Shown here one piece after another: positions 36,521 through 63,522 of a DNA stretch of 64,000 bases. Each line of letters opens with the position of its first letter. Position 1 is the stretch's first letter. The notes under the pieces were generated by a model. The model was given only the letters and a program-made list of their open reading frames with translations. It was not told where the DNA came from and made no database searches. This stretch comes from Kondoa subrosea (Eukaryota), in NCBI GenBank assembly GCA_039545335.1, contig BCIN01000005.1, positions 186,001 through 250,000 of the forward strand. Direction: 5' to 3'. The translations under genes were made by a program, and so were the position numbers.

Positions 36521-38376
36521 CTACAACAGAGCCAAATGATATGATAAGACGAAACAGCAAGGTGTGAGGGTTGAAAGAAAGCCATAGAAGACAATCGAGC
36601 GGAAGTCATCTATGGGACCTATCTCTTAGCAAAGCGCAAAATTCTAGAAAAGATGCACATACGGTACGCTATGCCAAGGACAAGTTGGCTTTTATCGATC
36701 AGAGGTAGAGTCATTGTCGGTGCGGCCCTCAATCTGATGCTGTACAGCGACATTGACTTGAGTGAAGAACTTTGCGTAAAGAGCCACAATGAATAGCCAT
36801 GTCGAATAACCTGTCAAACAATCAGTCAGTGCATGTCTGGGGTCTTACACTTAGAATCAAGTACATAGCCTTGCTCCGAACACTGCTGCAGACGAGACTT
36901 TCCGAAATAAAAATGGTACCACAGCAACCAGAGCTTCTTCCAAAAGATGCCCGAGCCACTTGGTGAGCCGGGTGTACGAATGAAGAAGCCAAGTATAGAC
37001 GTTAATGACTAAGACCTTGTTTAGTTGCGTAGATATACGATCGGATGTAACGCTTACTATAAGGCAACGAAAGCAGAAGACCCAAAGCAGAAAGAAAGCA
37101 AATGACAAAGTGATTCGATTGTAATACCACAAATATGAAACAAATGCAGAGCATGGCGCCAAAGAGGATCGATCTGTTTCTGCTTTTCTCGCTTTGCCGC
37201 TTGCTGTCATTCTCTTTTGTTGCATGTTCAATGGCAATAGCAGCAAGCTCAGCACGAAATCGTTCCGTCTTCTCTACCAATCCATCTTGTTCTCTTTCCA
37301 AATAGCGCATTTCTTGCTGAAGAGATCTCTTCTCGGATTCCAGATCTCTGTTGTTCGCTTCCAATCTGAGAATCGCCGCATCTTTTACCAACAGAGCTCG
37401 TTCAAATTTGTCTGCTCTTCTCCCCTCTTCTCGAAATTTCGCGTAGATGTGCTGGATTTCGAAAGTCATATCAATCTTCTCCTGCAATTGATCTGAAGCT
37501 TCTTTGGCGCTAGGAAACTTGCTATGTGTAAATTTGAGCTCGAGTTCTGCATTTTCCAAATTTGCTGAAAGCAAACGACATTCTGTTTCTTTGTCCTTCA
37601 ACAAAGCTTGAGCCTCGTGCAGAGTCGCCTTGGTCTGTTGCAAATCGATTTTGAGAGAAGCCGATTCTTGCTCGGTCTTAGATAGGCTCTTTGCCTAGGC
37701 TTTTTGCCAAATCGGTGTTTTTTGAAGTGATAGCACGTGATCCAGCTTGCATGACCATTGCTTTGCGCATTACTGCATTGGATTCAGAGAGGATAGATTG
37801 TCTTTCGTTCTCCAGCTTCTCGATCCGATGTTCCATCGTGCTCTTCTCGCAAACTAGACTTGTCTTGTCTTGCTGTAGTGATGCAACATCAGTCTTGAGC
37901 TGCTTGATTTCTTGGTCCTTCTCTTGTAAGCATCGTCTAGCTTCAAGAATATCCGGTACCAGGTTCCGAATCTTGCTTGGAGACTCGATAATGGTCTGGC
38001 GGAGTTTGCGAGGGGAAGCAGCGAGGGTTTTCAGAATTGGCGTACTGCTTGAACTGGAGCGAGATCGACGAGGAGTGGAGAGCTGAGGTTTGAGTGAGTT
38101 TCGAGGAGGTTCAACATGGAGAGACGCGTCTAAATGTTGCCAGAAAGATTTGGCGTTTGATAAAGAGTCCATTTCAGGCAAAGGATTAGATGAGAACGAC
38201 CTTGCACGTCTTCTTGCAGATACCTCAGCGACAGGTAAAGTTACTTGAGGCAGAGATATGGATTTCGGAATAGAAAAGGGTCCAGATTTTGGCGAATCTA
38301 TATGAGCTCTTGAGTTGTTTGAAGCCTTGTCGTGCTGGGTCTGAGGACTAAATAGATCAAAGCTTTCAGAAGGCAT
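36521..38376 (-). CDS. Orphan coiled-coil protein with C-terminal TM segments (cassette gene A, left copy); frame break near 37690
   Basis: ORFs 37678-38376 and 37002-37643 are in different frames. Long heptad E/K/Q-rich region, then hydrophobic ILFGAMLCICFIFVVL... and further spliced hydrophobic exons; 3' end tentative. N-terminus aligns with the 61588-63522 protein. Confidence 0.6.
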
Positions 38377-38813
38377 GATCTGTAGCTATTTTAACGATTC
38401 GAGTATGTTTGAGTGAAAGTAAAGGGAAAAAATCGGGACAGCTGGCTAAGAAGCATCTTGAGATTTGGACCAATTCGATATTTTGAGTTATGACAACGAT
38501 CAAGATGAAGGTATCATGAGATAGGACATTCTATAGCAGCTAGAGAACGCGAGAGCAACGACAATATAACATTCCGTGTTGAAAGAGATCCAGCGCGAAA
38601 TGCGTGACCAAGCAAATTGTCGGCCTCGTATCGCAGGACATCATTCGAGAAGGGTATAAGAAGCTGTGCAGGGCATTTCTAGCAGGTAGCAAATTGAGCG
38701 ACATGGCTTGCGGTCAAGAGGCAGTCGAAAATTGTGCATGAGTGACTTGGAGCGGGACAGCGATCAAGCGATACCGGAGACCTCTATATCAATGTCAAGG
38801 ATACCCTAGATGC

Positions 38814-39037
38814 CTAACGTGTGCCTCCAAGTCTCTGAGTGCCATTGGCTACTGGTCCATCATCATCCATGTCGTCGAAACTTGTATTAAATGTGCTGGA
38901 CTCTGATTGCTCTGATGACCCTTGCATCTGTTGCACAATGCTTCTCTGTATTTGATTCCTGTATGCTGCGACCGGTAAATCGAAATCAAGCCCTTTGCCC
39001 GAGGACAAGCCTTGCGCCTTTCCTCAAGAAACCACAT
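38814..39037 (-). pseudogene. Short ORF inside the IR, frameshifted relative to the right-arm copy
   Basis: ggcttgatttc here vs ggcttagatttc in the right copy. The 1-nt loss splits MWFLEERRKACPRAKGL from DFDLPVAAYRNQIQRSIVQQMQG...DDMDDDGP. Confidence 0.35.
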
Positions 39038-39469
39038 CTAAGCTTTGTCGAGCTCAGCGCAACTTTATATGCGTTGGAACACAGTGGGCGCATCAATCTG
39101 AAGTTATGGTAATCTGGATATCAGCGCAAATGGGAGAAAATGTTGGCCAAAATGCTGAACCTGCATTCTTCAGCTTATCTGGATCACTCTGGGCGCTAAT
39201 GCTAGTCGAGAAGATGATGATCTCTCAATTTAATCATTTGTGACGATGACAAGAAGGGAAAGAGGCAGCTCAGCAAAAGCTCTTTGAATGACTAGCACTT
39301 GCTGCAATTATCCATTACTCTACTTCTGCTATCTACTAGGCACACGAACCGTTAAACTATAATCTACGAGGATGCAACACATATTTCAAAGCTACACAAA
39401 TTTGACCCAATCGCTTCATCTGTCAGCCCAAACGAAGTCGAATTCCAATGCTCATTCTTCTCGACCAAT

Positions 39470-40691
39470 CTAATACAGTCTTCGAGTAGCTCCATATGAG
39501 TCAGGGGTAGAAGGAGGTGTGCTGCATGGAGAACAGAGAGATTCGCTTTCCAAGGATTCGTCGGATTCTGCTATTGAGGCAAGAGAAGAGATGGACGATG
39601 AGCGAAATAGAATTGGACGAGTTGGAGTGTAGAGTGGACATTGATTACAGTTGGCTTGCTCATTGGGTAAAACGAGTCGATTTGATGCGGATGAGGGAAG
39701 AAGAGATTCGTTTCGATCTGGTGCAGCAGGAGTAGCAGAAGCAAGCGAAGCTGGCCAACGAAGGGATTTGACTGAGAGTAGATCATAAGTCAAGTGTAGA
39801 AATAATAGGAAAGAGCAGCTCACTAGCACAACAGCAAGCCATGATGAAAGACCAAATGCCAGCCAACAAGATCCTAAACCAATGCTCTTGTACAATTACT
39901 ACCGGTGCGTTCTTCTTTCTCTCAGCTACAAGCTCTTGCTGAAGTGCTCGCAATTCAACATAATACTTCTTTGCGTCCTGTTCTGACGATTTTGCTCGAT
40001 TCTTGTACTTGAGAAGTTCGGCTTGAGAACGTTTTAGTTGCTCTTCAAGTTGCACTGCTGGAAGATGTACGATTTCTAGTTGAAGTTCAAGTCGACGAAT
40101 TTCGACTTCGCGGTCGAGAATGATGGCTTCGAGCATTGCTTCCCTTGCGTCCCTTGCTTTCCTTTCGTTCTCGATCTCTTCACATTCTCGCTTCATCTTT
40201 GCCATATTCATATNCGCGATNTCNTNTGCTCGTTGAGCACTGATNACTCCCCTCTTGAAAGATGCCTTTTCAACTCTNTCCAGTTCCTTTAGCGTCTCCT
40301 TACGAGTTTCCTTCCTCCTCGCTTCTGCATTTCGAAGATCCTGCATGAGAAGCTTGTTGGTTCTCATACTTTGAGATAGCTCGTAAGTGTCCTTGGCGTG
40401 TTGCCTTTTCGATCTGTGAGAGGGATCCAAAGGCCATCCGAAACAGTCAGTCTTAGGCTTGTCTTCAAGAGGTTTTGACGTTTTGGGACGTTTAATGAAA
40501 GACTTGAGAGACGATTTCTTTTGGATTTCGATTTCGATTTCGCGCGAATCGGAAGTAGTTGTATCTGAAGAATCGGCGAACGAAGAAGAAGAAGAAGTCT
40601 CAGGCGACTCGACAGTCTCCTGAGGGATGTTGCTCGTTTGCGAAGCAACAACAATTGCTGCAGTGGTTGAAGTCGCGATAATGGAAGACAT
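39470..40691 (-). CDS. Orphan Ser-rich/coiled-coil/single-TM protein (cassette gene B, left copy)
   Basis: MSSIIATSTT...coiled coil...HWFRILLAGIWSFIMAC; a 52-nt GTGAGC..CAG intron (39772-39823) joins it in frame to the Ser-rich tail ending RRLY. Paralog of 59272-60498. Confidence 0.8.
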
Positions 40692-40969
40692 CTTAGAAAT
40701 GCACGTAGAGCAGACGATAGAGAAAGAAGAAGAAGAAGAGAAGCAAGAAGAGAAAATCAGAATTGCCTGCGTTGGAATATGAGCTAGTACCTGAAGCCAC
40801 GACGGATTAACAATGAACAACAATTTTTATCAAGGAATGTAATCTAAGCAAGGGAAGAATGACGCGCTTAGTGGGCATCTTCGGCCTATACTAATGACAT
40901 ACAGTAGTATTGTAGGCGTATATATGCAGGTTATACGCGTTCTTGGAATAATCGAATCCGTGACGGAAT

Positions 40970-41712
40970 CTACTTCTTGTATTTAGCCCTGCATAGCGCG
41001 ATTCAGATTCAGCAGTGGCCAGACGAGATGATTACACTTACATCTGGGCTCCCTTGTTCTCGTACCTACAGCTCGAATACCGACAGTGAGCAAAAGTTGG
41101 ATATCACGATGAAGTATGGCTCACCCGCACTTCTCGTAGAAACCTATACAGGTACATATCAGTACGCTGTCCTCTATGCTGTACAGAAGCCAGACTGACC
41201 AGTATTCTTGAGATCGCAATCCAGAATCGTCTTGTAGCAACCCAAACTTTCGCTCAATCCCGTCAAAACCGCAATGATCTTCTTGCCCAAACCGCTTCCT
41301 TGCAATGTCTTCGAGACGACTATATCCTCAATATGTCCACAGGTGCCCAGATTGCGCAGGAACTTTCGCTCCAAGATCAGGCTTCCATTGGCCAATAATA
41401 CGTCTGGCTTGTTTGCTGCGTGGATGACTAAGATGTAATAGGTATCTGGAGCTGATTGTAAGAGCTTGAAGCGTTCTTCGAAAGCTGAGGCTGATTGAGT
41501 AGGTGCTGAAGTCAAATCGCTCAATAGATCAAAGTAGCCTCGTTTGTGATCATCCAAAGCCAGAGGACGGATCTAGATGACATTCACGATGAGACAGTGA
41601 AGAGATGTCAGGGAGCAAGAGAGCTTGCAATGTAATCTGGGCCGAACATCGCGGTCAACTCGCTTGGGATCAGGGAGTCATCGAAGAGCAGTGTCAGATC
41701 GCTGGAAGACAT
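40970..41712 (-). CDS. GNA1: Glucosamine-6-phosphate N-acetyltransferase (left copy)
   Basis: MSSSDLTLLFD..DYI|IRPLALDDHKRGYFDLLSDLT, ERKFLRNLGTCGHIEDIVV, QGSGLGK, GCYKTILDC and |FYEKCG|..QMAKYKK. First intron is GC-AG. Confidence 0.95.
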
Positions 41713-42122
41713 GCTTAGGGTATCTTCACGCGGCTACTATGTACGGGCTGCTTCAGGCTTCGAGAAATGGTGGATGGATGGCAACATCAAGCCGAAGCGT
41801 CAGTAAATTTCAATGAAGCGAAGGTTTCGGACAGCAAGGGTAAATGGGCGAGCTAAGCCTATCGTTGAACAGCAGACTAAATACATAGCAGTAAAGATGA
41901 AAAGAGCGTTCCACCCTTCCAAAACAAATCGTCAAGGAGTCAACCTTGCAAATTGTGACTCGGTATTAGTCGATGGCATAAAATGGCAAACGCTACAAGA
42001 GCAAAAAGCAGTGATATATCAAGTCTAATAAAAGTCAGAATACTTCTAGAAACCCATTGACAAGAAATCTTCGCAGAGACATTTGCTGAGACCAGCTCGA
42101 AGCAACGAATGTCAAACCGCAA

Positions 42123-42990
42123 TCATAAGCCTTTGCACACGTTTATCATGTTGCCCGAGAAGTATGCAATCATGAGCCTGTGAAGTTGACCAAGTAAGCA
42201 AAGTGAGCTTTCCGAAAAACGCCGAAAAGCAACTCACTGGAGGAGGGCAGCGAAGAAGAGACTGAGGCCGAACAAGGATAAATAAGTAGAGAGATTCCAA
42301 CAAGAAGGATCGACTTGAATGACCGCTTGACTATTCTGATTGCAGGCGATAGACTGGCGAGCTTTCTCTTGTAGCCTGTCCAATTCCTTCCAGTCCGCTT
42401 GTGCAATTGCCAGCTCCTCTTCTCGCTCTTTCTCAACCAGATCCAACCATTTTTGACATTTCCAAGTTCAGCAATCACTTCCGGATTAACTTCATCCAAA
42501 TAGACATTGCGACCATTATCCTTGCGCAATCGTTCATTTTCCGCTTTCAGACTAGCATAAGCAGATTTGAGCTCCAACTTCTTCTTGCTCTTCTCGTACA
42601 GTTTCTTTGCAGCTTCTTCAATCACTTTCTCTTCCAAAACTTGCTTCTTAGCCAACTTCTTGTTTGCTGCTGATAACTTTGCTTCTAATTCCTTGACCTT
42701 CTTTCGTTCCTCTTTCAATTGATCCAAAGGCTGGCTGACCAAGATTTTCAGGTCAACTGGTTTAGGTTCTTTGGGCTTGAAAGCGACTTTAGAGAGGAAA
42801 GAGCGAGAAGAAGATGATTTGGCTGAATCAGGTGAACAAGGTGGGTTGACAGTGCCAGTGTCAGAAGAAGAAGAGCTACTCGAAGAGATGGAACCTGATC
42901 TTGCTTTTGAAGTTGAGAAAGCTATAGAAAAGGAATGAGCTATGGTCGTATGAGAATTGCGAGCAGAAACTTACGAGTAATATGAGTCAT
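42123..42990 (-). CDS. Orphan Ser-rich/coiled-coil/TM protein (cassette gene C, left copy), one apparent frameshift
   Basis: MTHITP|FSTSKARSGS...SFLSKVAFKPK, then a coiled coil. The frame shifts at an A5 run (42450-42454) into LDLVEKEREEELAIAQ...YLSLFGLSLFFAALL, followed by a GTGAGT..CAG intron. Confidence 0.6.
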
Positions 42991-43599
42991 GGCTGGTGCT
43001 ATAAGTGAAGAGAAATAGTAGAGAAGGTATATGAACAGGAAGAAGAGAGGTATGGGCTAAATTAAGTTTGAAGTGATTCCGAGCAAAATTGAGCCTGACC
43101 GTCAAACACGTAATTAGTCGCGACTACACTCGCGTAATGGACGAGCAACAAGAAATTAAAAGGATTGTCATCCTATGCAAGCAGGAGACTTCTTTGTAGG
43201 ATGGAAAGAGAGAGACATTCGAACAAACACAGACTGAACTTAGCGGAAAGGCAAAGAAGTCTTCTTATGGCTGATAGCGTCAACGAGGCGGCACAGTTGC
43301 GGGTACCAGAGCCTGACAGCTCTCGAAAGCCCAAATAGAGAACATCGCCGCGCGAAGGCAAAGCGAAAAATCCCAACTGCTGCAACTCAAGGTCGCTCCC
43401 AGACTGCCATGACCGATGCTGACAGGAGTCGTCTCGTCAAGACTGAATTCTCGCTATTGCAATGTCGTCACGGAACAAAAGCCACTGAACTTCTTCCGAA
43501 TGTGAATGGGTCCAAGCTCGCATGCTACCCTTCTGTTTTCTACTTTCCTTCTCTTCTCTATACCACTTTTCTTGCTATACCTTTTCATTCCTTACAAAC

Positions 43600-44490
43600 A
43601 TGCGCACGCAGGCCGTGCTAGCTGTTCTCACCCTTTCATTCATTCAAGCCGCAAAGATTCGCCCGAGCGCATGTGCTTTTCCTTCTGCTCTCTTTGACCG
43701 ATTGGCTGTAGAGACCCAATTCGATGTGCCAGAACAAGCTTTGGCTAGAACTCTAGCTATGGGTCTGGGGGATCAGATTTATCATTGTGAAGATGAGCGA
43801 TTTGTGTGAGAGCCTAATCAAAATCAGCTGTTTGTCAAGCTGAGTTGATTGCACAACACAGTCAATCCAGCTCGAACGCAGAACTCTTTGATCTATCCTG
43901 CTTGTCTCAAGGCAGACATAAGAGTCAGTGCTTTGCTTCCCACGATCACAATGCAGCTCTAACACAAGGGAACAGATCTAGATCGCTTGATGACCTCTTT
44001 TCGAGGATCTTTGCAATATCAAGATGTACTTGCAAAGCGCGGTCATTTCGCAACACCAGAAACTGCAGATCACGTACGTCTTATGCATTATGCACAGGTC
44101 CTGTTCATTCTCATGCTGACATACCGCATATAGATGTTCCGCCGTCTTACAAACGCTCAGCAAGCAAACAGATTAGGCACAGCTCATTTACCACCTGGCA
44201 ATTCAAACCATTCCATCTTCACTTTCACTTCTCCCGCTATTTCCCACGATCACACTTTCCTTGTCGCTGAAGAAGATTCAACTCTTCCATCACCACATGG
44301 AAGACATTTACCTTGGTCAGTGTTGAAAACCGATTGGACGGAATTTGGGCACAGCAGTGTGATTCGATGGCAAACTGCTGGCGGATTACCATTGGCTCGT
44401 AGATGTAGCGAAGGGGAAGTGACGAAAAGACCTTTTGCTGCGGTATATGCTTTCTTGGATATACCGTATCAGTATACCTTCTTAGATTGA
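43600..44490 (+). CDS. Secreted DUF3455-like protein
   Basis: Signal-peptide-like MRTQAVLAVLTLSFIQA; motifs AMGLGDQIYHC, AELFDLSCL, LPWSVLK, VIRWQTAGGLP...C and FAAVYAF resemble fungal DUF3455 proteins. Confidence 0.7.
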
Positions 44491-44643
44491 AAGGTCATGG
44501 ACAATTTGTGGATATTTGAAAAGAGGGGAAAATAATCGTTCTTTATTTATACATAGCATTGAAATATACCGTACATAGATCCCATTTACTTCCTTTGGCG
44601 ACTTGCTTGGTCAACATCTTTATCTCTGGGGCTCTGATCGCAT

Positions 44644-46016
44644 TCAGGCGGATTTTCTATAAGCTAGACCAGGACTAGCTTGGCTAGAGTAGTCATCAGC
44701 TCCTGTATGCCCGTCGATGTCAAGATCGGCTTACTTAACGGGCATAACCCAGCCTATTGATGAGTAATTAGCTTCAATCAATGCCGGCGAAGTTGATACG
44801 TACATTCTGCAATATTGACATGAGCAGGCCTTGAAGCGATCCATAATACTTCTTCGGCAATATCACTGTTCATCGATACGCATTGATACTCGACAAACGA
44901 GACCAAAGCTTTATCGACGCACTCTCCAGTCAATGGCTCTATCCCTGAACAATACAGTGAGCTTCCGTAAATCATATAGTCTGACGAGAAACTTACCTTC
45001 ATACACTTTTTTGGCTTTATCTTTATCGCCTCTCATGCGAATGATTGAAAACCTGGTAAAACTCGCTGTCAATCTTGCTTCAATATGATTGAACAGGGAC
45101 ATACTCGGTCTCTACCATTCCAGGCTGCACTTCTGAAACTCGGATTTGAGTATCATACAACTCTTTCATAAGGGAATTGGTGAAAGCTCGAACAGCCGCT
45201 TTGGCTGCGCAATAGATTGATCCACCGGGGTAGGATTCTCGACCTGCTATTGAACCGATATTGATAATGTGACCTGAGTTCTTCTTTTGCATGATGGGTA
45301 GAACTAGTTGTCTGTGCACAAAAGATTGAATGGATAGGGCTGTGATGAGCAGGGAAACACGAACGTCATTTGCATTAGCGATTTGACGTTTAAGTCGAGC
45401 ATAGCTGTATGGAGAGAGATGAGCTAGAAAGAAGCTGTAGTGTAAGATGACTGACTGTCAATGTCTCCCATATCAATCGTCCCAACTTTTTCTGTGCCAG
45501 TCGCGCCTCCAGCATTGTTGACCAGACAATCGACTACGGAAAGTGTCAGTATATCAAAACAAGCAAAGGGGAAATAAGCTTACTATCTCTGAGCTCTTCT
45601 GGGATCTTGTCCATAAGTGAAGCGACGGATTGGCGATCCAGGACATCCATTACTACGCTAGCGTACTTTCCATTTGGATTAGCAGCTTTGCATTGCTCCA
45701 GAACTTCTTTCAGTCTGTCTTCACGACGAGCGAGAAGGATGACATTGGCTTGTGACTATCATAGCACAACACATAAACGCGGATAACAGTTGAGAGAAGA
45801 AGAGCGTTACTTTGGCGAAGAGTATAGCAGTAGCAGCGCCGATGCCTTTGGAGAGGTAATGAGAACGAAGTATGGCACACGACATGAAGAAGACAAGAAA
45901 CCTGAAGAGGCTCCGGTCACGAGCGCTGTTTTGCCTTGCAGACGAGGAAAAGAGATAGAACTGGAAGACATGCTGCGTAAAGTGTTAGTAGAAGCTCGAA
46001 GTGGCAGTCGAAGCAT
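44644..46016 (-). CDS. Short-chain dehydrogenase/reductase, YMR226C/YdfG-like 3-hydroxy acid dehydrogenase
   Basis: [43 protein letters not shown] (YxxxK), [29 protein letters not shown] and [13 protein letters not shown]. Confidence 0.9.
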
Positions 46017-46142
46017 AAGCTGGGAAGTCCAAATATGGCTTGATCCAACTCAACGAGGCTCGATACTCCTCAAGGAGCTGGAATATACACAGCAGCAGCG
46101 TCTCAGTTGCCTTATACCTCGTATTCAATCAGTGAAGCATCA

Positions 46143-47861: not shown

Positions 47862-48206
47862 AATATTAGGATCTTCTTGCAATATCTTTGGTACTAATTC
47901 TTGCTAGATTGTAATGTGTAATACTAGATGCTTAAGCTATACACAATACCTAGATTGCTATCACCCGATAGTTGCTTCCCACCGGTGGCATGCCCCAGTT
48001 TCTGCGGTCGCGGGCTAACTTAGATTGTCAGCTGAACAGCAATTCGCTAGAAATAGCTGCTACGTGCAGTGCGTGGTGCTTCGGCTTGCTTATCAGGTTT
48101 CTCGCTTTCTTCTCCTGCTTCTCTACCATACTGCTTTCAAGCTTCTTCCCCGAACGTTAACTGGGTTGAATTCGTCAAGTGTCTACTGTTTCTTCTTGCC
48201 TGAGCT

Positions 48207-52815: not shown

Positions 52816-53309
52816 AAGCCTAGCAACTGAAGCAAACACTACTTATCATATCAACTCATATATCTCTTCTCATCCGATTCACTACACATATACCAGACCA
52901 TGGGCCTCCTTTCCGCAAATCAATAGCTACTTTGGCCTACGCTTGCGGTGAGCGCGTCGAGTCTCGGGATCAACAAGACAAGGGCTCAAAGGGACTTGTA
53001 TTGCAGACTTCAGATACGCTTTGTAGACGCGGCTGTTCGGACATATTTAGCAACCAAATTGATCGGAGAAAAAAAAGTCAACAAGCTTTTGACGAAAGGC
53101 CGCCCTGTGTTTTTTTCTTGCCTTATCCAGCCAAACACCAAGCTCCCTTACACAAGAAACTAGTCACTTGCATCAGCCAAAGACTCTAAGATCCTTCTCA
53201 TTGATCTTCGCGCAAGCACCTTCATTAGAAGATTCCAAAATACAACACAAGAAATACCTTGTTATGCCTTTTCGCTGTTGACCGTTGGATTACACTGGCT
53301 AGGTGAAGG

Positions 53310-54951
53310 ATGGCTGCCTGCGAAACGCTTTTCGGAACCAGCTTGGTGGAACAAACTTCGACAAATGTGATGACAGAAGTCAACACTGTCTGTTCATCTC
53401 GCGCTTGGACGCTATTTATGCAGAGCTGATTGGCTTGGATAGGTCACGGCTGATGACAGTACAAGTATTGGAAGTGTTCCTGCTGGTTTGGTTACACTTT
53501 GTCCTGCTGCAAGCGATGGAGGGGACTGCTCGACTTCGACCAACTATGATATAACAACTCAAATTATACCTGTACGCTCGCTGTGTACTCAATCTGACTG
53601 TGCTAAGATTGGTCATTAGGGAGCTGCATCAGAAGTAACGAATGTTCGAACAGAATTGGTTACAGCTACTTCATCATCGGTATTCCCTACAGCTACCAAT
53701 TGTCAGCCTGGATCTTCAGTCACAGCCCCTGTTCAGCCTGTGAGCAGCACTACAAGACAATCAATACCTTCACCTTCTTCCCGTACTCAAGCTGAAACTT
53801 CTTTCATGACAACAATCCGGACTACTTCAACATGGCAACCTACTCCTACAGAAGACCCCTCTGCAAACAAGGACGAATCTGGTCGACCTACTTCTGTATC
53901 CTATGTCACTTCCATTGTTGTCGTTACAGCAAACGATGGCTCTCAATTAACCTCTTCAATGGTAGTCGCTGCTCCTAACGGTCAACAGCTCAACGCATCT
54001 GGAGGTCGCAGTCATACTGGCGCAGCCGCAGGAGGAGCAATAGGAGGACTTTTGGGTCTACTCTTACTAGTATTGCTACTGCTTGGATGTAAAGGAAAAG
54101 GACCCTTGAAATCCTGTCGACCGAAAGATCAAGGGATAGCAGAAGAAGATTGGGTAGCTGCTGCGCATGGGACTCGAGAGAAACCAGATGAAGATGATGA
54201 AGATGAAAATGGAGGAGATCATGCTGTTGCACCTGTTCACTTTGATGGAAGAAGACAGTCTGCTGTTGCTCCTACAAGAAGTATGTCGCAAATGAGCCAC
54301 GCTACCTCTGCTCGACCTCTCTCTGCTGCGTACTCGGAAGAAGGTGGTCCTGCTTGGCATGGTCTAGCGATGAATCAATCTGTACATCCTCAAAATGGAC
54401 TTCCTTCCCAAGGTGGACCGTTGAACCGGAGAAGTATGCCTGTGATGAATGATGGACCATTATTACAGCATCGAATGTCTTTACCTTTAGGTTACCACTC
54501 CCTACCTTCCTCAAGAAGCCATCAATCCGTGCAACCTCTAGATCGAAGATTATCAGCTCCACTTTCTTTACCTACCCGATCTCTGTCTCACTCTTCTTCC
54601 GCCCCTCGAGTGAGCAGACCTGCAATGAAACTCAATACTTCTTCACATGGAACAACAGAATCCATTTCTACTGAATCTTCTTTATCTTCCGCCATGCCAG
54701 TCACACCACCTTCAGCCAGTATAGAGAACAGGAACAAATATGATCTACATATAGTTGGAGAAGAAGATGATTTACCTTATTTAATGAGACGGGATTCAAG
54801 TTTGGGAACGCCTACCAAGGAACTGCAAGGTTTCAAATTACATCTCGTCACTGAATTGGATGCGGATGTGAGAGAGGAACAGATGAGAGAAGCAAAAGAA
54901 GAAAGAAGAGGGGAAGCTGGACTCCTTCAACCTAGTTTGATCTGTGCATAA
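53310..54951 (+). CDS. Single-pass membrane protein with Ser/Thr-rich ectodomain (Mid2/Wsc-like architecture)
   Basis: Spliced MAACETLFG...|VTADDS...|GAASEV..., then an S/T-rich stalk, TM AAAGGAIGGLLGLLLLVLLLLGC and a disordered cytoplasmic tail. Start tentative. Confidence 0.75.
53692..54006 (+). repeat. Donor copy of a ~320-bp direct repeat (partner 62803-63129)
   Basis: tgtcagcctggatcttcagtcacagc...gcaaacgatggctctcaa...ctcaacgcatctgga vs tgccagcctggatcttcagtctcagc...gcaaatgatggttctcaa...ctcaacgaatcagga. Confidence 0.92.
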
Positions 54952-55170
54952 TTTATTCTGTCGATTAAAGGGGGTATAATTTCGGTATCTGTTCTCAGTG
55001 TTCAATAGATGTTTTGGTCTGTAAAACGTTGCGAGTGCCAGTCTTGAAGCAGTTAACATTGCAAAGCACGGGAATTTGCGAATGCTCCAGCAGTAAGAAG
55101 CTCGACTTTTGCTGTCACCCTAAATGATCTCAATCCCGCATTACAACGCTTGCCAATACTTGAACAGAGA

Positions 55171-55622
55171 TTACCGCTGGTAGGTCCAGACGTTCTTGAG
55201 AACTGTCAGTCAAAAACTCCTCATTAGCTGCTATCCAGCTACACGACACCAAGCTGCATTAACTGACGACCGTCTCTTGTCATGAGCCTGTTCAATGAAT
55301 CATCCCCTTCGGCATTGCCTCTCAAGAAACCGCAAAGAGGGTAGGTAACATTTTGGCCAGGGATCATTTTGCCAGATTCGTCGACTTCAGCAATGTTGAT
55401 TTGTACTGAAGCGTGGTCTTTGGCAGTGATAAGGCGGTTGGTGGCGGCACACTTTCGTGGCACGTAGACTGTAGCCCACAGTAATCAGGCTGTGTGGACT
55501 TGCATTTATCGAATGTGCCAAAAACTCACGATCAACGACTGTGAGAAAGGAAGCGATGATTAGACCTTGTTCTAGGCCCTAAAGCTTAAGTAAGGCATAC
55601 CTTGTCCTGCATCGTTTTCCAT
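55171..55622 (-). CDS. RPS21: 40S ribosomal protein S21
   Basis: [40 protein letters not shown]...[14 protein letters not shown] segment...|[14 protein letters not shown]. Includes a 9-nt microexon at 55530-55538. Confidence 0.97.
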
Positions 55623-56237
55623 GTTGGGCTAGGATTTGAGTGATGGTACAGGAGAAGTCGAAAAGTTTGCGATTTTTCGTTTTTGGTCAAGGCCGACGAC
55701 TTGACTGTATCTTCAGCTGATGTGGCTCTGTGCTGACTGGGAATATGGATGAGCTGCCAGACCCTCGATGATACCGAAATGTCGAAAAGCTATGACTGGA
55801 TCTTGCTCGCTCCTTTGCCTTTCTTTCGTTTCCGAGGAACTCAATTTTTCTGCTCTGCTTTCTATGCTGCTGTTATCTTTCACTCTTCCCTTGTCTCGTC
55901 TAGGTGTCCCGACCTGAGTTGGCGAGCTACAGTCAGAATCAGGATCGAAGCTAGACTTCTGCTGCTAGACATGGCGTTCGCTCAAATGCTATGTATCGCG
56001 TCTCTTGCTGTGTCAATACGTATCTACGCTTCTGTTCTACCTAAGGGAACTCACTTGCCAAACGTATCGCGTCCCGTCATCAAGCATTTCGCGAAATCAA
56101 GTTTCAAGCTGCAGTCAGGAGCAAACTCTTGCTCTGAATCATGCAGCATTTTCGGGCTGTAAAAAGCTCTTTTCCGGTTCTTCTTCTTCTTCTTCTTCTT
56201 GAACCACTTTCTTCTTTCCTATCAATTTCACTTCATC

Positions 56238-57935
56238 ATGGGCAAACATCGCGTTTCAACCTTCTGTCTGAAAGCTGCCGCCCGCCTCGCTCTGACTGGC
56301 CTTAAGACTTACGAGTATATTACATCCGAGCCAAAGCAAACGCCTGTCTACATTCCTGACCCCTTATTGGATGTTGGACGTGAGCTTTTACAATGTTCCA
56401 GCTATCTGCTTGTACTGATAACACTACTCCAGCTCCAGCTTTACCGCCTCGACGTGCAGCCTCAATTGCTACTTCTCAAGCTGATGCTCCTTCAAGTCAG
56501 TCGCTCATGCTGTCTTAAGCATTCCATCCTAATGTATTTGTGCTTAGCTTGCCAACTGGAACCATCTCTACTTCCTGAAACCTTAGAAGGCACTACTTTG
56601 GGCACTCAAGCTCCATACTGCTCTCGTGAGGTATCTGGCACATTTGTGTCTATGCTCTAGCTGACCTGTTCACCTTTGGCTCCTTCTACTCCCAGCTTAT
56701 CTCGGTCCTCTTCTACTTCCACTGGGTTCTCTACCTCTTCTACTTCACCTGCATCCACTTCTCGTTCTTCTATTTTCTCAAGCTTGCTCCGCAAATCAGA
56801 CCCATCTCAAAGTACAAGCTGCTCATGAAAAGGAACTTGCTCGTCAACAATCAGTACACGAAAAAGAAGTTGCTCGTCTTCAAGCATCTCATGAAATAGT
56901 CCTCAAGACGATGCAAAGAAAACAGCATCATCTTTTCACTCAATATTGCCAACAAATCGAAAACTGCAAGCAGAATGATATTGTGCTGCTCAAAAGAACT
57001 TTAGCTGAACAATCTGAGACGATCAAAGAGTTGGAAAACGAAGTTGATCAAGAAAGAGAAGCTAGATGAAGAAGATAAGAACAGTTTAGCTCGAAAGTAT
57101 TTGAGGGAGAACAAATGGATTGAAAAGAATGAATTGGCTGCTTTGTTGAGAGAAAATGAGGAGTTGAAAAGGGATGCAGCGGATCAAAAGCAGAAAGGTC
57201 AAGAAGAGGAACAAGCGAAATCTCTTGTCACTCAAGGGAAGTTGTTGTTAATGCTCAAGAAGTCGGATCGTCTCGAGTCAAAGCAATCAGCTCAATTGGC
57301 ATTTATGGCACAGCAACTTCGTATCTTGGAGGATCAAATCCAGGTCATTTCCAGCTGCTGAGGCAATGCGAGCTAATCTCATCTTAATCTTCTGCCCGAT
57401 GATATTCGTCGCGTTCTTTGTCTCTCTCCTCTTGGCTGGCGATGACCTCGCAGCGATACGCAGGGCCTATCTTTGGCTTGTCATTAACACTGTTACGACT
57501 TTCTTCTTCAAAATTCAAATGGCATCATGGATTTGTAGAAGATACACCTCTTCGCAACGTGAGTTGCTTCCTGCAATACTTTCTTAATCGCAAAGCTGAT
57601 CTTCTTGCTACATAGTTCCTCTTGAGCAAGGACTTTGTGAACCCAAAGTCAGGTCTGCGCAGATCAGACCTGCTAGCAAGAAACCGAAATCTGCTAGCAG
57701 GGAAGCTGAAGCTCATCCTCAAGGCAAGAGACCTTCATCAGCTGCTTTCGTTCACTCTTTCGCTGAACCGATCAAACCGGAAACTCAAAGCAAATCTGAA
57801 TTACCTGAAGCTACTACAAAAGAAGAGTCACCCTCAACACTTCTTCAGCTCGCGGCCTTGAGTGAATGTACGCCTGCTGGTGGTACTATTCGGAAGGCTC
57901 ATCGCTTCAGAAGTTTGTTCAGCAAAAGCGGCTGA
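56238..57935 (+). pseudogene. Disabled Ser-rich/coiled-coil/TM gene (cassette gene C, right copy)
   Basis: Ser-rich, coiled-coil and TM blocks lie in different frames (breaks near 56810, 57040-57070 and 57350). KKEKLDEEDKNSLARKYL...AALLRENEELKRD resembles KKQVLEEKVIEEAAKKLY...ASLKAENERLRKD of 42123-42990. Confidence 0.55.
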
Positions 57936-58254
57936 AGAGATTCTTGGATGTCGTAAAGCGCAAGTAACAGTGTTAGATAAGATGGGAGTGCTGAGAAGTA
58001 TTGGTGAGCAGTGAGCACTTTATGGGTGTATCTTTGTGTTGCGTGCTGGACATGCTTGAAATGCTATGGTCGAGTTTCGACGAGAGCTGTGGTCTCCTTC
58101 GCTTCCTCTCGAAAGGTCTGGGCATGAAGCAACAGAAGCTCTGCTTAATGGTAAACAAGCTTGTTTCGCGTCAGAATGAGCTCCTGAATGTTGTTTCCAA
58201 ACCATCATATTGCTAGACAGAGCAACATTCTGGGCGCAGACAGATACCCTAAGC

Positions 58255-58995
58255 ATGTCATCCAGCGACCTGACTCTGCTTTTCGATGGCTCTCTGATTC
58301 CAAGCGAGTTGTCCGCGATGTTCGGACCAGAATACATTGCAAGCTCTCTTGCGGCTGATGCTTTCTTCTCTGTCTTATTTTCTATACTGCCTAGATCCGT
58401 CCTCTGGCTCTTGATGATCACAAACGAGGCTACTTTGATCTCCTGAGCGATCTGACTTCCGCACCTCCTCAATCAGCCTCAGCTTTCGAAGAACGCTTCA
58501 AGCTCTTACAATCAGCTCCAGATACCTATTACATCTTAGTGATCTATGCAGCAAACAAGCCAGACGTGTTACTGGGCAATGGAAGCCTGATCTTGGAGCG
58601 AAAGTTCTTGCGCAATTTGGGCACCTGTGGACATATCGAGGATATAGTAGTCTCGAAAACATTGCAAGGAAGCGGTTTGGGCAAGAAGATCATTGCGGTT
58701 TTGACGGGATTGAGCGAAAGTTTGGGTTGCTACAAGACGATTCTGGATTGCGATCTCAAGAATACTGGTCAGCAGCAGTATTCTCTGTTATAAACTTATA
58801 CATTGATACTATGATCCGTCTAGGCTTCTACGAGAAGTGCGGGTGAGCCATACTTCATCGTGATATTCAACTTTTGCTCACTATCGATTCTGGCCTGGAG
58901 ATACGAGAATAAGGGTGCACAGATGTGAGTGTGATCATCTCGTCTGGCCACTGCTCAATCTGAATCGCGCTGGCAGGGCGAAATACAAGAAGTAG
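58255..58995 (+). CDS. GNA1: Glucosamine-6-phosphate N-acetyltransferase (right copy)
   Basis: Same exon structure as 40970-41712, including the GC-AG intron 58339-58394. Intact frame ending AKYKK-stop. Confidence 0.95.
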
Positions 58996-59271
58996 ATTCC
59001 GTCACGGATTCGATTATTCCAACAACGCGTATAACCTGCATATATACGCCTACAATACTACTGGATATCATCGTATCCGCCGAAGATGTCCACTAAACGC
59101 GTCATTTCTTCCCTTGCTTAGATTACATTCCTTGATAAAATTTGTTGTTCATTAGAAATACGTCGTGGCTTCAGGCACTAGCTGATTCTCGAACGCAAGT
59201 TCTTCTGATTTTCTCTTCTTGCTCCTCCTCTTCTTCCTTCTCTATCTTTTGCTTTACTTTCCGCTTCTAAG

Positions 59272-60498
59272 ATGTCTTCCGTTATCGCGACTTCAACCAC
59301 TTCAGCAATTATTGTTGCTTCGCAAACGAGCGACATTCCTCAGGAGACTGTCGAGTCGCCTGAGACTTCTTCTTCTTCTTCTTCGTTCGCGGATTCTTCA
59401 GAACCAACTCCTTCCAATTTGAGCAAAATCGAAAATCAGAAGAAATCGCCTTTCAAGTCTTTCATTACACGTCTCAAATCATCAAAGCCTCTTGAAGACA
59501 AGCCTACAACCGACTGTTTCGGATGGCCTTTAGATCCCTCTCACAGATCGAAAAGGCAACACGCCAAGGACACTTACGAGCTAGCTCAAAGTATGAGAAC
59601 CAACAAGCTTCTCATGCAGGATCTTCGAAATGCAGAAGCGAGGAGGAAGGAAACTCGTAAGGAGACGCTAAAGGAACTGGANAGAGTTGAAAAGGCATCT
59701 TTCAAGAGGGGAGTNATCAGTGCTCAACGAGCANANGANATCGCGNATATGAATATGGCAAAGATGAAGCGAGAATGTGAAGAGATCGAGAACGAAAGGA
59801 AAGCAAGGGACGCAAGGGAAGCAATGCTCGAAGCCATCATTCTCGACCGCGAAGTCGAAATTCGTCGACTTGAACTTCAACTAGAAATTGTACATCTTCC
59901 AGCAGTGCAACTTGAAGAGCAAGTAAAACATTCTCAAGCCGAACTTCTCAAGTACAAGAATCGAGCACAAGCATCAGAACAGGACGCAAAAAAGTATCAT
60001 GTCCAAATGCGAGCACTTCAACAAGAACTTGCACTTGAAAAAGAGAAGAAGGCACCGTTAGTAATTATGCAAGAGCATTGGCTTAGGATCTTGTTGACTG
60101 GCATTTGGTCTTTGATCATTGCTTGCGGTTCGGCTGGTAAGCTGCTTTCTCCTGATATTCCTGCACTTGAACTTATTTTCTACTCAGTTGCGTCCCTTCG
60201 TTGGCCAGCTGCGCTTGCTTCCGCTTCTGCTGCTGTACCAAATACAATCGAAGCTCTTCTGCCTTCATCCACATCACATCATTCCGCTTCACCCAATGAG
60301 CAAGCCAGATTTTGCGATCAATGGCGACTTTACACCCCAATTCGTCCAATTGTAATTCGCTCATCTTCCATCTCTTCTCTGGCCTCAATAGCAGAGTCGG
60401 ACGAATCCTTGGAAAGCGAATCGACCTCTCTGTATTCTCCATGCAGCACACCTCCTTCTTCCCCTGACTCAACTAAAACTTCTCGAAGACTGCATTAG
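59272..60498 (+). CDS. Orphan Ser-rich/coiled-coil/single-TM protein (cassette gene B, right copy)
   Basis: 408-codon ORF containing an in-frame 51-nt GTAAGC..CAG intron (60137-60187). Close paralog of 39470-40691. Confidence 0.8.
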   Translation: MSSVIATSTTSAIIVASQTSDIPQETVESPETSSSSSSFADSSEPTPSNLSKIENQKKSPFKSFITRLKSSKPLEDKPTTDCFGWPLDPSHRSKRQHAKDTYELAQSMRTNKLLMQDLRNAEARRKETRKETLKELXRVEKASFKRGXISAQRAXXIAXMNMAKMKRECEEIENERKARDAREAMLEAIILDREVEIRRLELQLEIVHLPAVQLEEQVKHSQAELLKYKNRAQASEQDAKKYHVQMRALQQELALEKEKKAPLVIMQEHWLRILLTGIWSLIIACGSAGKLLSPDIPALELIFYSVASLRWPAALASASAAVPNTIEALLPSSTSHHSASPNEQARFCDQWRLYTPIRPIVIRSSSISSLASIAESDESLESESTSLYSPCSTPPSSPDSTKTSRRLH

Positions 60499-60929
60499 AT
60501 TGGTCGAGAAGAAGGAGCATTGAGATTCGAGTTCGTTTGAGTTGACGGATGAAGCGATTGGGTCAGATTTAGACAGCTTTAAAAGATGTTTTACATCCTC
60601 GTAGATTATAGTTAATGGTTCGTGTGCCCAGTAGATAGCAGAAGTAGAGTAATGGAGAATTGCAGCAGGTGCTAGTCATTCAAAGAGCTTTTGCTGGGCT
60701 GCTTCTTCCCCTTTTTGTCATCGTCGCAAATGATTGGATTGAGAGATCATCATCTTCTCGACTAGCATTAGTGTACAGAGTGAGCCAGATAAGCTGACGA
60801 ATGCAGGTTCAGCATTTTGGCCAACGTTTTCTCCCATTTGCGCTGTTATCCAGATTACCATAACTTCAGATTGATGCGTCCAGTGTATTCCAATGCATGT
60901 AAAGTTGCGCTGAGCTCGACAAAGCCTAG

Positions 60930-61154
60930 ATGCGGTTTCTTGAGGAGGGGCGCAAGGCTTGTCCTTGGGCAAAGGGCTTAGATTTCGATGCGCCGGCCAA
61001 TGTATACACGAATAGGACACAGAGAACCATTGTGCAACAGATGCAAGGGTTATCACAGCAATCAGAGTCCAGTACATTTGATACAAGTTTCGACGACATG
61101 GATGATGATGGACCAGCAGCCAATGGCAATCAGAGACTTGGAGGCACACATTAG
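60930..61154 (+). CDS. Short hypothetical ORF or terminal exon inside the IR
   Basis: 74-aa open frame MRFLEEGRKACPWAKGLDFD...DDMDDDGP; the mirrored copy is frameshifted. Confidence 0.3.
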   Translation: MRFLEEGRKACPWAKGLDFDAPANVYTNRTQRTIVQQMQGLSQQSESSTFDTSFDDMDDDGPAANGNQRLGGTH

Positions 61155-61587
61155 GCCTGTAGGGTATCATAGAAACAGGATATAGAGCTCCCTGGTATCG
61201 CTTGATCGCTGTCCCGCTCCAAGTCACTCATGCACAATTTTCGACTGCCTCTTGACCGCAATCGATGTGCCTCAATATGATACCTGCTGGAATTGCCCTG
61301 CACAGCTTCTTATACCCTCCTCGAACAACGTCCTGCGATACGAGGCCAACAATTTGCTTGCTCACGCATTTCGCGCTGGATCTCTTTCAACACGGAATGT
61401 TCATATTGTCATTGCTCTCGCGTGCTGTGGCTGCTATAGAATGTCTCATCTCGCGATACCTTCACTTTACTCGTCGTTCCCATTCAAAACACAGACTTAG
61501 TCGAAATTGGAAGATACTGACCGAGATCGCTCGAGAGTCTCAGTCGCTCACTTCACCCAAACCACTTCACATCACGAACTCGCAAAG

Positions 61588-63522
61588 ATGATGTTTGACC
61601 TCTGTGATGCGCTCAACACTCAAGTTCTTGGCTATCCTCGTAGCGCACCTGCAGGAGGAACACCAGTGAAAGAACTTCGACGACCTGTCGATAAGCTGCC
61701 CAAATCCAACTCAACTCCTCAAGTAGCCACAACTACGCGTCGAATTACCATCGAACGACGCACCAAATCTCTCATTCTGGGCGATTTACCTACTCAAGTT
61801 GATTGTTTGGCGAACTCGCAACTCTTTCTACAAGAATTGAACGCGACATTCAACACTAGACCTGCTATATCTATACCTGTCGATATAATCAGACCTTCCA
61901 CACCGCCTCCTGCGCCTTTGGCTAGATCTTCAGCCTCAATCAGTCTAATTGGTCGAACTCTTGCTAATTCACCTAGCAAGCTTGGTAAGAAGATCCTGAA
62001 GTCGACTAGCAAGATCAAAGCTTTGAGAACAGATGTTTTCGACGCCAACAATGGTTCTGGCGAGATGAGTGAGAAAAATGAGCGAATTCGAGAAATGGAT
62101 GCTACTTTACAACAAAATACAATGAACGCTCAATATGCTTCAAATAGCGCTGCACATCAAATCAAGACGCTTATAAAACGGTGTGAATCCCTTAGCAGAG
62201 AAAAGCAGAGAGTGCAAGATGATAAAACAGAACTTGGATACAAGCTGTATGATGCCCAGCAAACTGGTGACTTTATGCGTGGCATTGGATTTATCAACCA
62301 AATTGGTGACCAGCAGGAAGAGCTCAAATCTATCAACAAGTCTCTGGACAAGGCAGAAACAAAGGTCAAGCATCAAGAAGCTCAGATTGGGAATTTACAA
62401 GAAGATGTTTTCCAATTGCTTAAGGTCATACAAGAGAAAGATCGACAGCTTGAAGACTTTACAGCTCAAATGGCACAGCAATCCACAAAGTTTGACGAGC
62501 TACAATTGGTTCTTGAAGCAGATCTGCAGACAGCTCGATCCAACCGGGAACAGGCTTGTACTGCTATCATTAGTTTGAAAGAAGCAAAGGAACAACAAAG
62601 GGAGCTTATTCAACAACAAGCAGAGGGTATAGAGAATCTCAAGCTCGAATGTCTCGGATTACACATGGAGAATGATCAACTGCAATACGTTGTCGCTCTT
62701 CAGCACCGTAGTTTTGTTGCAAACGAAGAACGGATTTTGTCTTGCGAAAGCAAGATGGTCTCTTTGGTCAGCAAAGTCGAAGTCCTCAAGCAAAAGTTCA
62801 ATACTACAACTTGCCAGCCTGGATCTTCAGTCTCAGCGTCAGTTCAGACTGTGAGCAACAGTACAAGACAAGCAATCTCTTCAGCCTCTTCTCGCACTCA
62901 AGTTGAAGCCTCTGCCATGACAACCATTCGAAACACTTCGGCTAGACAAGCGACACCTACAAAAGACGCGTCTCCAAACGATGATGAGTCTGGTCGTCCT
63001 ATTTCTGCATCCCATGTTACTTCCGAGGTCGTCGTTACTGCAAATGATGGTTCTCAATCAATCTCTTCACTGGTCTCTTCACTGGTAATTGCTGCTGATA
63101 ATGGTCCGCATCTCAACGAATCAGGAAGTAGCAGCTTTGTCATCAATTCAAGCAATGACGAAGCATCGTTGCACAACTGCAATCCTGCTGATGTTGATAC
63201 CACTCTAGCCTTCATGGCAATCTTCTTTGCTGGCGCTTTCACCAGTGCTTTCTCTTATTGGATACCTGAAGCGGCTAGATTTGAAAATACTCAATATACC
63301 GACAGTCTTCATGTCGTTACTGGTCTTTTGTTCTCTCTGGTGCCTTTAAGCTTCGTACTGGCTGAATGTAAGCGATCGGCTCTGTTGATTTCGACGATCG
63401 TTGATCAAAATAACACAGCTTTATCTTGTCCAGCTTCATCTATCGGCGAGGTCCTCTTGTATATTTTGGAGGTTCTCTTTAGCGTTGTCTCACATGGTGG
63501 TTCGTCACAGTTCTTGCGCTGA
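61588..63522 (+). CDS. Orphan coiled-coil protein with captured S/T-rich segment and C-terminal TM segments (cassette gene A, right copy)
   Basis: Within a 671-codon open frame. N-terminus is similar to the 38376 gene (PKSNSTPQV/PKSISLPQV; DCLANSQLFLQELNA/DSLSNAKSFWQHLDA; RTLANSPSKLGKKILKSTSKIKAL/KTLAASPRKLRQTIIESPSKIRNL). May splice to 63603-63893. Confidence 0.75.
   Translation: MMFDLCDALNTQVLGYPRSAPAGGTPVKELRRPVDKLPKSNSTPQVATTTRRITIERRTKSLILGDLPTQVDCLANSQLFLQELNATFNTRPAISIPVDIIRPSTPPPAPLARSSASISLIGRTLANSPSKLGKKILKSTSKIKALRTDVFDANNGSGEMSEKNERIREMDATLQQNTMNAQYASNSAAHQIKTLIKRCESLSREKQRVQDDKTELGYKLYDAQQTGDFMRGIGFINQIGDQQEELKSINKSLDKAETKVKHQEAQIGNLQEDVFQLLKVIQEKDRQLEDFTAQMAQQSTKFDELQLVLEADLQTARSNREQACTAIISLKEAKEQQRELIQQQAEGIENLKLECLGLHMENDQLQYVVALQHRSFVANEERILSCESKMVSLVSKVEVLKQKFNTTTCQPGSSVSASVQTVSNSTRQAISSASSRTQVEASAMTTIRNTSARQATPTKDASPNDDESGRPISASHVTSEVVVTANDGSQSISSLVSSLVIAADNGPHLNESGSSSFVINSSNDEASLHNCNPADVDTTLAFMAIFFAGAFTSAFSYWIPEAARFENTQYTDSLHVVTGLLFSLVPLSFVLAECKRSALLISTIVDQNNTALSCPASSIGEVLLYILEVLFSVVSHGGSSQFLR
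62803..63129 (+). repeat. Recipient copy of the ~320-bp direct repeat, in frame inside the coiled-coil gene
   Basis: CQPGSSVSASVQTVSNSTRQAISSASSRTQ...DESGRPIS...VVVTANDGSQ matches the 53692-54006 translation. Confidence 0.92.

Follow-up and report, generated by a model that had tools for sequence, protein, structure and literature searches.

The window analysed here, 64,000 nucleotides of contig BCIN01000005.1 from Kondoa subrosea (positions 186,001 to 250,000), contains two inverted repeat arms of 3.3 kb each, separated by a gap of 16.5 kb, and each arm carries one copy of a predicted glucosamine-6-phosphate N-acetyltransferase gene, GNA1, and one copy of an orphan gene, which we call B. We consider it likely that this locus is an old inverted segmental duplication that has undergone sporadic interlocus gene conversion and in which two GNA1 isogenes have been retained. 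Its setting is an ordinary gene-dense region of a basidiomycete-like fungal chromosome.

Geometry and copy number of the inverted repeat

Comparison of the window with itself by blastn aligned positions 38452-41725 with 61518-58242 at 88.3% identity over 3300 columns, and repeat finding resolved the same inverted repeat into 16 collinear inverted pieces with identities of 76-96% each. The arms are sharply bounded: in a global alignment, identity is 86-90% inside the arms and drops at all four edges to what chance would give (~40-50%) within ~100 nt. Past the outer arm edge, blastn finds no match and the nucleotide signal is weak (z 5.6), and the nucleotide comparison of the inner flanks gave z 3.5. 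The window holds one further repeat only, a direct repeat of 331 columns with 75% identity (53693-54011 / 62804-63134). A preliminary description of this DNA had placed the inverted repeat at 38506-41725 / 58242-61464; the repeat is real, and its outer end was off by ~54 nt. That each arm contains GNA1 and B, as also described there, is borne out by a GNAT gene closest to solved GNA1 enzymes and by the open reading frame (ORF) of B, and in the gene models the minus strand encodes the left copies and the plus strand the right ones. The elements of the repeat are as follows.

38452..41725: left arm of the inverted repeat, defined by blastn, the collinear pieces and the drop in identity at its edges
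58242..61518: right arm of the inverted repeat, defined by blastn, the collinear pieces, the edge drop and arm-specific contig depth
41726..58241: spacer, single-copy, 16.5 kb, defined by Pfam and a 17,028-nt contig
40970..41712, minus strand: left GNA1, 172 aa, exons 41712-41629, 41572-41200, 41143-41125, 41065-41042 and 40988-40970
58255..58995, plus strand: right GNA1, 172 aa, exons 58255-58338, 58395-58767, 58824-58842, 58901-58924 and 58977-58995
39470..40691, minus strand: left gene B, exons 40691-39824 and 39771-39470, with a 52-nt intron
59272..60498, plus strand: right gene B, exons 59272-60136 and 60188-60498, with a 51-nt intron
40072..40375: left copy of a 304-bp identical tract within the B coding sequence, with ambiguous bases (Ns) at 40214, 40221, 40224, 40226, 40245 and 40278
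59585..59888: right copy of the 304-bp identical tract within B, with Ns at 59682, 59715, 59734, 59736, 59739 and 59746

An inverted repeat of this kind could have arisen in the assembly, if two alleles or haplotypes of one locus had been mis-joined as an inverted duplication. The ambiguous bases at mirrored places would fit such an artefact, as would the apparent origin of the assembly from short reads, indicated by Nextera adapter remnants in loose contig ends. As an independent check, we used Logan contigs, which are built from raw reads separately from the submitted assembly and came here from two short-read runs of one sample in one study. The comparison covered positions 40279-59681, the range between the Ns of the two arms, and all 19 contigs (19/19) were at least 99% alike to the assembly within it. 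In one of the runs (X1), a single contig of 17,028 nt covers 41470-58497 with zero differences, and thus the entire spacer together with ~250 nt of each arm. The depth of this contig is 140.6, and in the same run the contigs specific to the left arm have depths of 157.3, 148.3 and 145.9, and those specific to the right arm depths of 136.9, 163.6, 149.1 and 145.9.

Since mis-joined alleles would give half the spacer depth and a collapsed repeat would double it, arm depths close to that of the spacer indicate that both arms are real and single-copy. The duplication thus withstands the objection raised with the preliminary description, that two haplotypes might have been mis-joined. An artefact is also opposed by the 17-kb contig, which runs from inside the left arm via the spacer into the right arm, by different flanks on all four sides of the arms, and by the fact that both gene pairs are intact and carry a signature of selection; we regard it as highly unlikely. 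One contig suggested a joint from 44924 to 59222, with 21 letters on its shorter side (<31) and 255-nt loose ends; we rejected it as a foreign contig with a shared short word, not a rearrangement.

Divergence of the arms and the genes they carry

Both GNA1 copies are predicted to be glucosamine-6-phosphate N-acetyltransferase genes. Their products match the Pfam family Acetyltransf_1 (PF00583) with 31.2 bits for the left and 34.4 bits for the right copy (cut-off 20.7). The solved structures closest to the right copy are GNA1 of A. fumigatus (E 5.5e-29), Arabidopsis, C. elegans, human and yeast, and the top 8 of 9 PDB matches are GNA1 enzymes, with 2vez, 3t90, 4ag7, 2huz and 1i12 among the solved structures. 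The GNAT fold family is shared with these structures and the alignment is full-length, the A. fumigatus chain being aligned over its residues 50-172. Named database relatives are glucosamine 6-phosphate N-acetyltransferases from basidiomycetes, and the best relatives of any kind have 53% identity. A metagenome scan with GNA1 exon 2 recovered relatives with up to 51% identity, and none of the 80 loci retained out of 467 relatives (0/80) contained a homologue of B, of the neighbouring genes A and C described below, or a second GNA1.

The two copies share a five-exon structure and differ at 6 of their 172 residues, with a synonymous divergence (dS) of 0.278, a nonsynonymous divergence (dN) of 0.018 and a dN/dS ratio of 0.064. 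Based on the conserved exon structure, the length of 172 aa in each case and this low ratio, both are predicted to be functional genes under strong purifying selection. Intron 1 (58339-58394; 41573-41628), whose splice site was placed by alignment to solved GNA1 proteins, apparently starts with GC (GCAAGC) rather than GT in both arms. The homology of the arms stops 13 identical nt upstream of each GNA1 ATG and fades by ~30 nt, so that the upstream regions of the two genes are unrelated and lie within the spacer. The two tandem-inverted copies and their unrelated upstream regions distinguish this GNA1 from reference GNA1, and the pair has probably been retained because the two isogenes differ in regulation. 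In model fungi there is one copy of GNA1 and it is essential, and a literature search listed nothing specific on GNA1 paralogues in basidiomycetes.

Gene B presents a different pattern of divergence. Its predicted protein consists of a Ser-rich N-terminus, a Glu/Lys/Arg/Gln-rich coiled-coil-like region, one hydrophobic segment and a Ser-rich tail. Between left and right copies dN is 0.093 and dS 0.125 (dN/dS 0.74); there is no stop codon in either copy, all coding indels (4/4) are multiples of 3, and the lone 1-nt indel lies in the predicted intron. Both copies are kept open yet evolve at a near-neutral rate. No homologue of B was found at E<=0.001 in a word-index search (candidates of 224-714 aa), or among 1.84 billion representatives searched in full with HMMER. 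This orphan status is unremarkable for a fast-evolving gene from a lineage that is poorly sampled, as the identity of the best GNA1 relative illustrates.

Divergence is distributed unevenly along the arms. The introns of GNA1 differ at 66 of 222 sites (30%) and the B intron at 15 of 51, B exons diverge by 9-16% and the intergenic DNA of the arms by 10-13%. The intergenic DNA (38452-39469, 40692-40969) is far better conserved than the introns of the same arms. Within B lies the 304-bp tract, which is identical in both arms, and without it arm identity is 86.5% (13.5% differences). The longest identical run observed, 304 columns, exceeds the maximum of 96 in column shuffles, none of which (0/2000) reached 304, and at the background rate a stretch of 304 sites would show 6 or fewer differences with a binomial probability of ~1e-12. 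The only 12 Ns of the window all lie in this tract, six per arm and exactly mirrored, with 4 of the 6 at third codon positions. Scoring the six Ns as differences shortens the longest run to 142, which still exceeds the 93 reached at most by shuffling. In the simplest reading, the mirrored Ns mark true variation that could not be attributed to one copy by the assembler or polisher, in which case the tract is at least 98% identical rather than 100%. The first-bin mean depth of 171, compared with 140, fits a double-depth contig over 40279-40397, according to a rough back-calculation. Set against a background of ~13.5% differences, the tract points to at least one recent interlocus gene conversion between the arms, so that non-allelic recombination does take place at this locus. 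The description of the arms as homogenised, given earlier, is overstated for a repeat that shows the above identity outside one such tract, diverged introns and a GNA1 dS of this size.

The genes next to the outer arm edges, A and A', bear on how far the original duplication extended.

36857..38376, minus strand: gene A, ORF 38376-37681, a frame break, then ORF 37694-37005 (coiled coil, hydrophobic segments), and a probable short last exon
61588..63522, plus strand: gene A', an unbroken ORF of 644 aa, residues 37-195 homologous to A

Their N-terminal ~160 residues are clearly related (BLASTP E 1e-18, 55/164 identical or 34%; Smith-Waterman z 24.5 with 100 shuffles), while their C-terminal coiled-coil halves are weakly alike (z 5.3), so that their earlier designation as mirrored paralogs is sound for the N-terminal part and poorly supported for the remainder. 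Start codons of A and A' lie 76 and 70 nt outside the arm ends, which places their promoters inside the arms. The frame of A changes near 37680-37700 (minus strand), beside a 13-nt near-duplicate with 2 mismatches, and both frames are open for ~230 codons. This frame break is either a frameshift of recent origin, an intron of atypical form or an error in the sequence; the introns that could mend it are atypical candidates only, of 79-97 nt (GTAATG or GTCATG ... AAG). No homologue of A' was found at E<=0.001 in a word-index search (candidates of 354-1127 aa). Residues 407-518 of A' are 65% identical (E 5e-33) to part of a spacer gene at 53620-54948 for a Ser/Thr-rich single-pass membrane protein, a match that corresponds to the direct repeat mentioned above. 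From its composition, A' resembles a chimera in which a Ser/Thr-rich domain has been borrowed and combined with the N-terminus and coiled coil of an A-type protein.

The inner genes adjoining the arms, C and C', had been described as a further mirrored pair, and the whole as a four-gene, 27-kb mirrored duplication.

41940..42990, minus strand: gene C, approximate model, main ORF 42173-42970
56630..57584, plus strand: gene C', approximate model, ORF pieces 56665-57066, 57005-57358 and 57252-57584 in three frames

We found no significant similarity between them. A tblastn comparison of all ORFs of at least 30 aa (41750-46000 vs 46000-58240) gave short chance matches with a best E of 0.003, the shuffle z for C against C' was 2.0 at best, and in BLASTP one piece reached E 0.012, over 47 residues of coiled coil, and the other E 64. 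The homologous pairs are thus GNA1, B and the N-terminal part of A and A', and the mirrored unit is A(5' part)-B-GNA1, a two- to three-gene block of ~3.9 kb, which falls short of the extent first described.

The step at the outer edge, from 88% nucleotide identity inside the arms to 34% protein identity beyond them, suggests that the duplication predates the similarity now seen in the core. We infer the following history. The original duplicated unit would have comprised at least A(5' part)-B-GNA1, in inverted orientation. A core of 3.3 kb (the A promoter region, B and GNA1) would then have been kept similar, or made similar again, by interlocus conversion with sharp edges, with flanks that diverged far more. 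After being homogenised at some time, the core would have decayed by ~0.3 substitutions per neutral site, and the latest conversion would have left the identical tract inside B.

Alternatively, B and GNA1 alone might have been copied in a recent 3.3-kb inverted duplication that landed beside a pre-existing member of the A family, with no older duplication or homogenisation. A simple breakpoint would account for the sharp edges, and A-like sequence is mobile here, as seen in the 331-nt piece common to A' and the spacer gene at 53.6 kb. However, A and A' are mirrored right at the outer edges, which is unlikely to be a coincidence given the position of their start codons, and divergence ranges from 0 to ~30% along the arms, which is not what one event with clock-like decay afterwards would leave. 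We therefore give this alternative little chance of being correct.

Spacer, flanks and the predicted effect of an inversion

The spacer encodes, besides C and C', a short-chain dehydrogenase, an aminotransferase, a cytochrome P450, the RNA polymerase III subunit RPC5, a Ser/Thr-rich membrane protein and ribosomal protein S21e. The spacer gene that shares sequence with A' is the following.

53620..54951, plus strand: gene 'A2', with a Ser/Thr-rich region, one strong hydrophobic segment and a long tail; positions 53693-54011 are 75% identical to 62804-63134 in A'

The left flank likewise contains housekeeping genes, and the genes recognised there are those for a nonribosomal peptide synthetase (NRPS)-like reductase, CPSF73, PRCC, an Alg13-like protein, listerin and Pet100. 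The NRPS-like gene (1627-6168, plus strand) is intron-split and of the C-A-T-R type, with condensation, AMP-binding, phosphopantetheine-binding and NAD_binding_4 (reductase) domains. As far as the window reaches, to 64000, both sides are gene-dense, GC content is uniform (44-48%) and repeat arrays are absent.

The five orphan genes A, B, C, C' and A', which are neighbours, have a common architecture: the N-terminus is Ser-rich, the middle is charged and coiled-coil-like, and a hydrophobic segment lies towards the C-terminus. Pairwise similarity among them is significant for A/A' and B/B' only, and they may represent a very fast-evolving local family. A motif S-F-I/L-S/T-K/R... seen by eye at the N-termini of B, C and C' proved not significant (pairwise z 0.8-3.7). 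An additional ORF of 150 codons in the intergenic DNA between A' and B of the right arm (60718-61170, minus strand) is probably not a gene. Its left counterpart (38742-39240, plus strand) is broken into three frames, and the two are ~83% identical at the protein level for ~91% nucleotide identity, which looks neutral.

On the basis of the geometry, the locus had been proposed as a candidate invertible or variation-generating locus, by comparison with mating-type switching in methylotrophic yeasts; taken in full, this would mean a regulated or frequent switch of the Ogataea type. Besides the geometry, the mirrored ambiguous bases could in principle reflect a mixed population. The search for switch machinery gave no support to this proposal. 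A Pfam scan of 276 ORFs from the window (82 + 89 + 105) gave no match to mating-type (MAT) genes (homeodomain, HMG, pheromone receptor), recombinases or transposases, although small intron-split exons could escape such a scan, and this agrees with the absence of a MAT gene and recombinase already noted in the preliminary description. No tRNA or Rfam family was found in the window, tandem repeats included nothing relevant, and no sign of a centromere or telomere was seen within it.

The consequences that were predicted for an inversion also require revision. It had been proposed that recombination within the arms would exchange the upstream region and the C copy linked to each set of genes. With homology lost 13-30 nt ahead of the ATG, no crossover within the arms, wherever it falls, would separate a GNA1 from the upstream region and the C gene that it has now. 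Re-partnering would be confined to the outer part, which comprises A with its promoter and some or all of B, with a chimeric B depending on the crossover point, so that the predicted swap would hold for the outer part and fail for GNA1. As inversion would not link GNA1 to a new promoter, no change in its expression is predicted.

Frequent flipping accompanied by homogenisation is not supported by arms that are 12-13% diverged, with introns near 30% and the GNA1 dS given above. In S. cerevisiae, ectopic repair is reported to be reduced ~5-fold by 2% divergence (PMC6511840), and by extrapolation a divergence of 12% would suppress recombination between the arms much more than that. Inversion of the 16.5-kb spacer by a crossover between the arms is mechanically possible, and would be a rare by-product of conversion and no regulated or frequent switch. 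This rarity, like the history of old duplication and conversion, is what we infer from the arms. Taken with the housekeeping genes RPS21 and RPC5 in the spacer, the lack of switch machinery and an effect of crossover that spares GNA1, these considerations make a regulated or frequent switch very improbable.

Comparison with known systems and significance

In Ogataea polymorpha, identical 2-kb repeats lie beside MATa and MATalpha, next to a centromere, and 19 kb are inverted, with centromeric silencing of one side and induction by starvation (PMC5720833). What the two loci share is a pair of inverted repeats around regions of comparable length (19 kb in Ogataea, 16.5 kb in this locus). The repeats of Ogataea are identical, whereas those in the window are 12% diverged (88.3% identity overall, 86.5% outside the tract) and are not near-identical; neither MAT genes nor alternative cargo were found, no position effect is evident within the window, and the two organisms belong to different fungal phyla.

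The flip/flop region of Saccharomyces chromosome XIV is the closest analogue. According to its description (Salzberg et al. 2022, PMC9731477), this region is flanked by repeats formed by YNL018C/YNL019C and YNL033W/YNL034W, which are 4.2 kb long, lie 24 kb apart and contain two genes each, one of them from a fast-evolving lineage-restricted family. These repeats are 97.6% identical and homogenised by gene conversion, inversion being an occasional by-product (~4% of conversions become crossovers), and orientation was stable over ~53,800 mitoses and 950 meioses (PMC9731477).

An evolutionary flip/flop region of the same type could accordingly be proposed here, with both orientations among strains, conversion sometimes resolved as crossover and an inversion that has no function. 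The layout matches: inverted repeats with paired genes flank a multi-gene spacer, and both loci have inverted repeats of 3-4 kb with two protein genes (one fast-evolving and lineage-restricted, the other membrane-associated or conserved), 16-24 kb of ordinary genes between them, gene conversion between the repeats and no recombinase. Sequence exchange between the arms is seen here too, as at least one conversion tract, the 304-bp tract representing a single event. However, the yeast repeats are continually homogenised, whereas the arms described here are 88% identical, with a single recent tract and introns near 30% divergence, and homogenisation has been rare for a long time. Both orientations are documented in yeast and none here, where the evidence comes from short-read contigs of one sample (two runs) that end inside the arms. 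As described, the yeast repeats further include a tRNA gene and lie near the centromere, features for which no counterpart was found in the window, and a gene for a housekeeping enzyme such as GNA1 within the repeat is a feature of this locus that the yeast region does not have. We consider such a region unlikely here.

Inverted segmental duplications and palindromes whose arms are kept by arm-to-arm conversion, such as sex-chromosome palindromes, typically have arms that are more than 99% identical. As in this class, the arms of the locus end sharply, the spacer is unique, genes occur in pairs and conversion has left tracts, whereas its arms are largely decayed and resemble a late stage of such a structure.

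Several observations weigh against an old duplication with sporadic conversion and two retained isogenes, or limit what can be concluded from it. No relative in the searched collections that could serve as an outgroup for the history exceeds the 53% identity in GNA1 given above, and differential regulation of the two GNA1 copies is suggested by their unrelated upstream DNA. The low divergence of the intergenic DNA could be due either to promoter or untranslated-region constraint in both copies or to younger conversion. The mirrored Ns show that the tract was treated as one sequence in the assembly, and part of its identity could be a consensus artefact. Finally, the contigs all break at runs that are identical in both arms and are uninformative on the orientation of the spacer, so that a mixed or polymorphic orientation remains compatible with them.

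A broader reading would join several of these elements. In that case the locus would be a basidiomycete counterpart of the flip/flop region, with the spacer in both orientations among or within strains, and the six mirrored ambiguous bases would reflect ongoing exchange between the arms in the culture that was sequenced. A, B and C would make up a lineage-restricted family of tail-anchored membrane proteins, Ser-rich and with coiled coils, that diversifies rapidly and whose turnover drives the structure, and GNA1 would have been carried along and retained as a second, differently regulated isogene. We find this combination rather improbable.

The old duplication with sporadic conversion, which we favor, introduces no mechanism of a novel type, and a switch is not supported by any evidence. 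If correct, it would provide a tidy example of a decaying inverted segmental duplication with sharp conversion boundaries and one fresh conversion tract, in which a housekeeping enzyme is present in two copies with unrelated promoters and orphan genes are near-neutral yet kept open. For the idea that homogenisation of repeats produces inversion polymorphisms as a by-product, it would offer a second test case, from a phylogenetically distant lineage. It would also be a case for how GNA1, an essential single-copy gene of the UDP-GlcNAc/chitin pathway, becomes a pair of isogenes.

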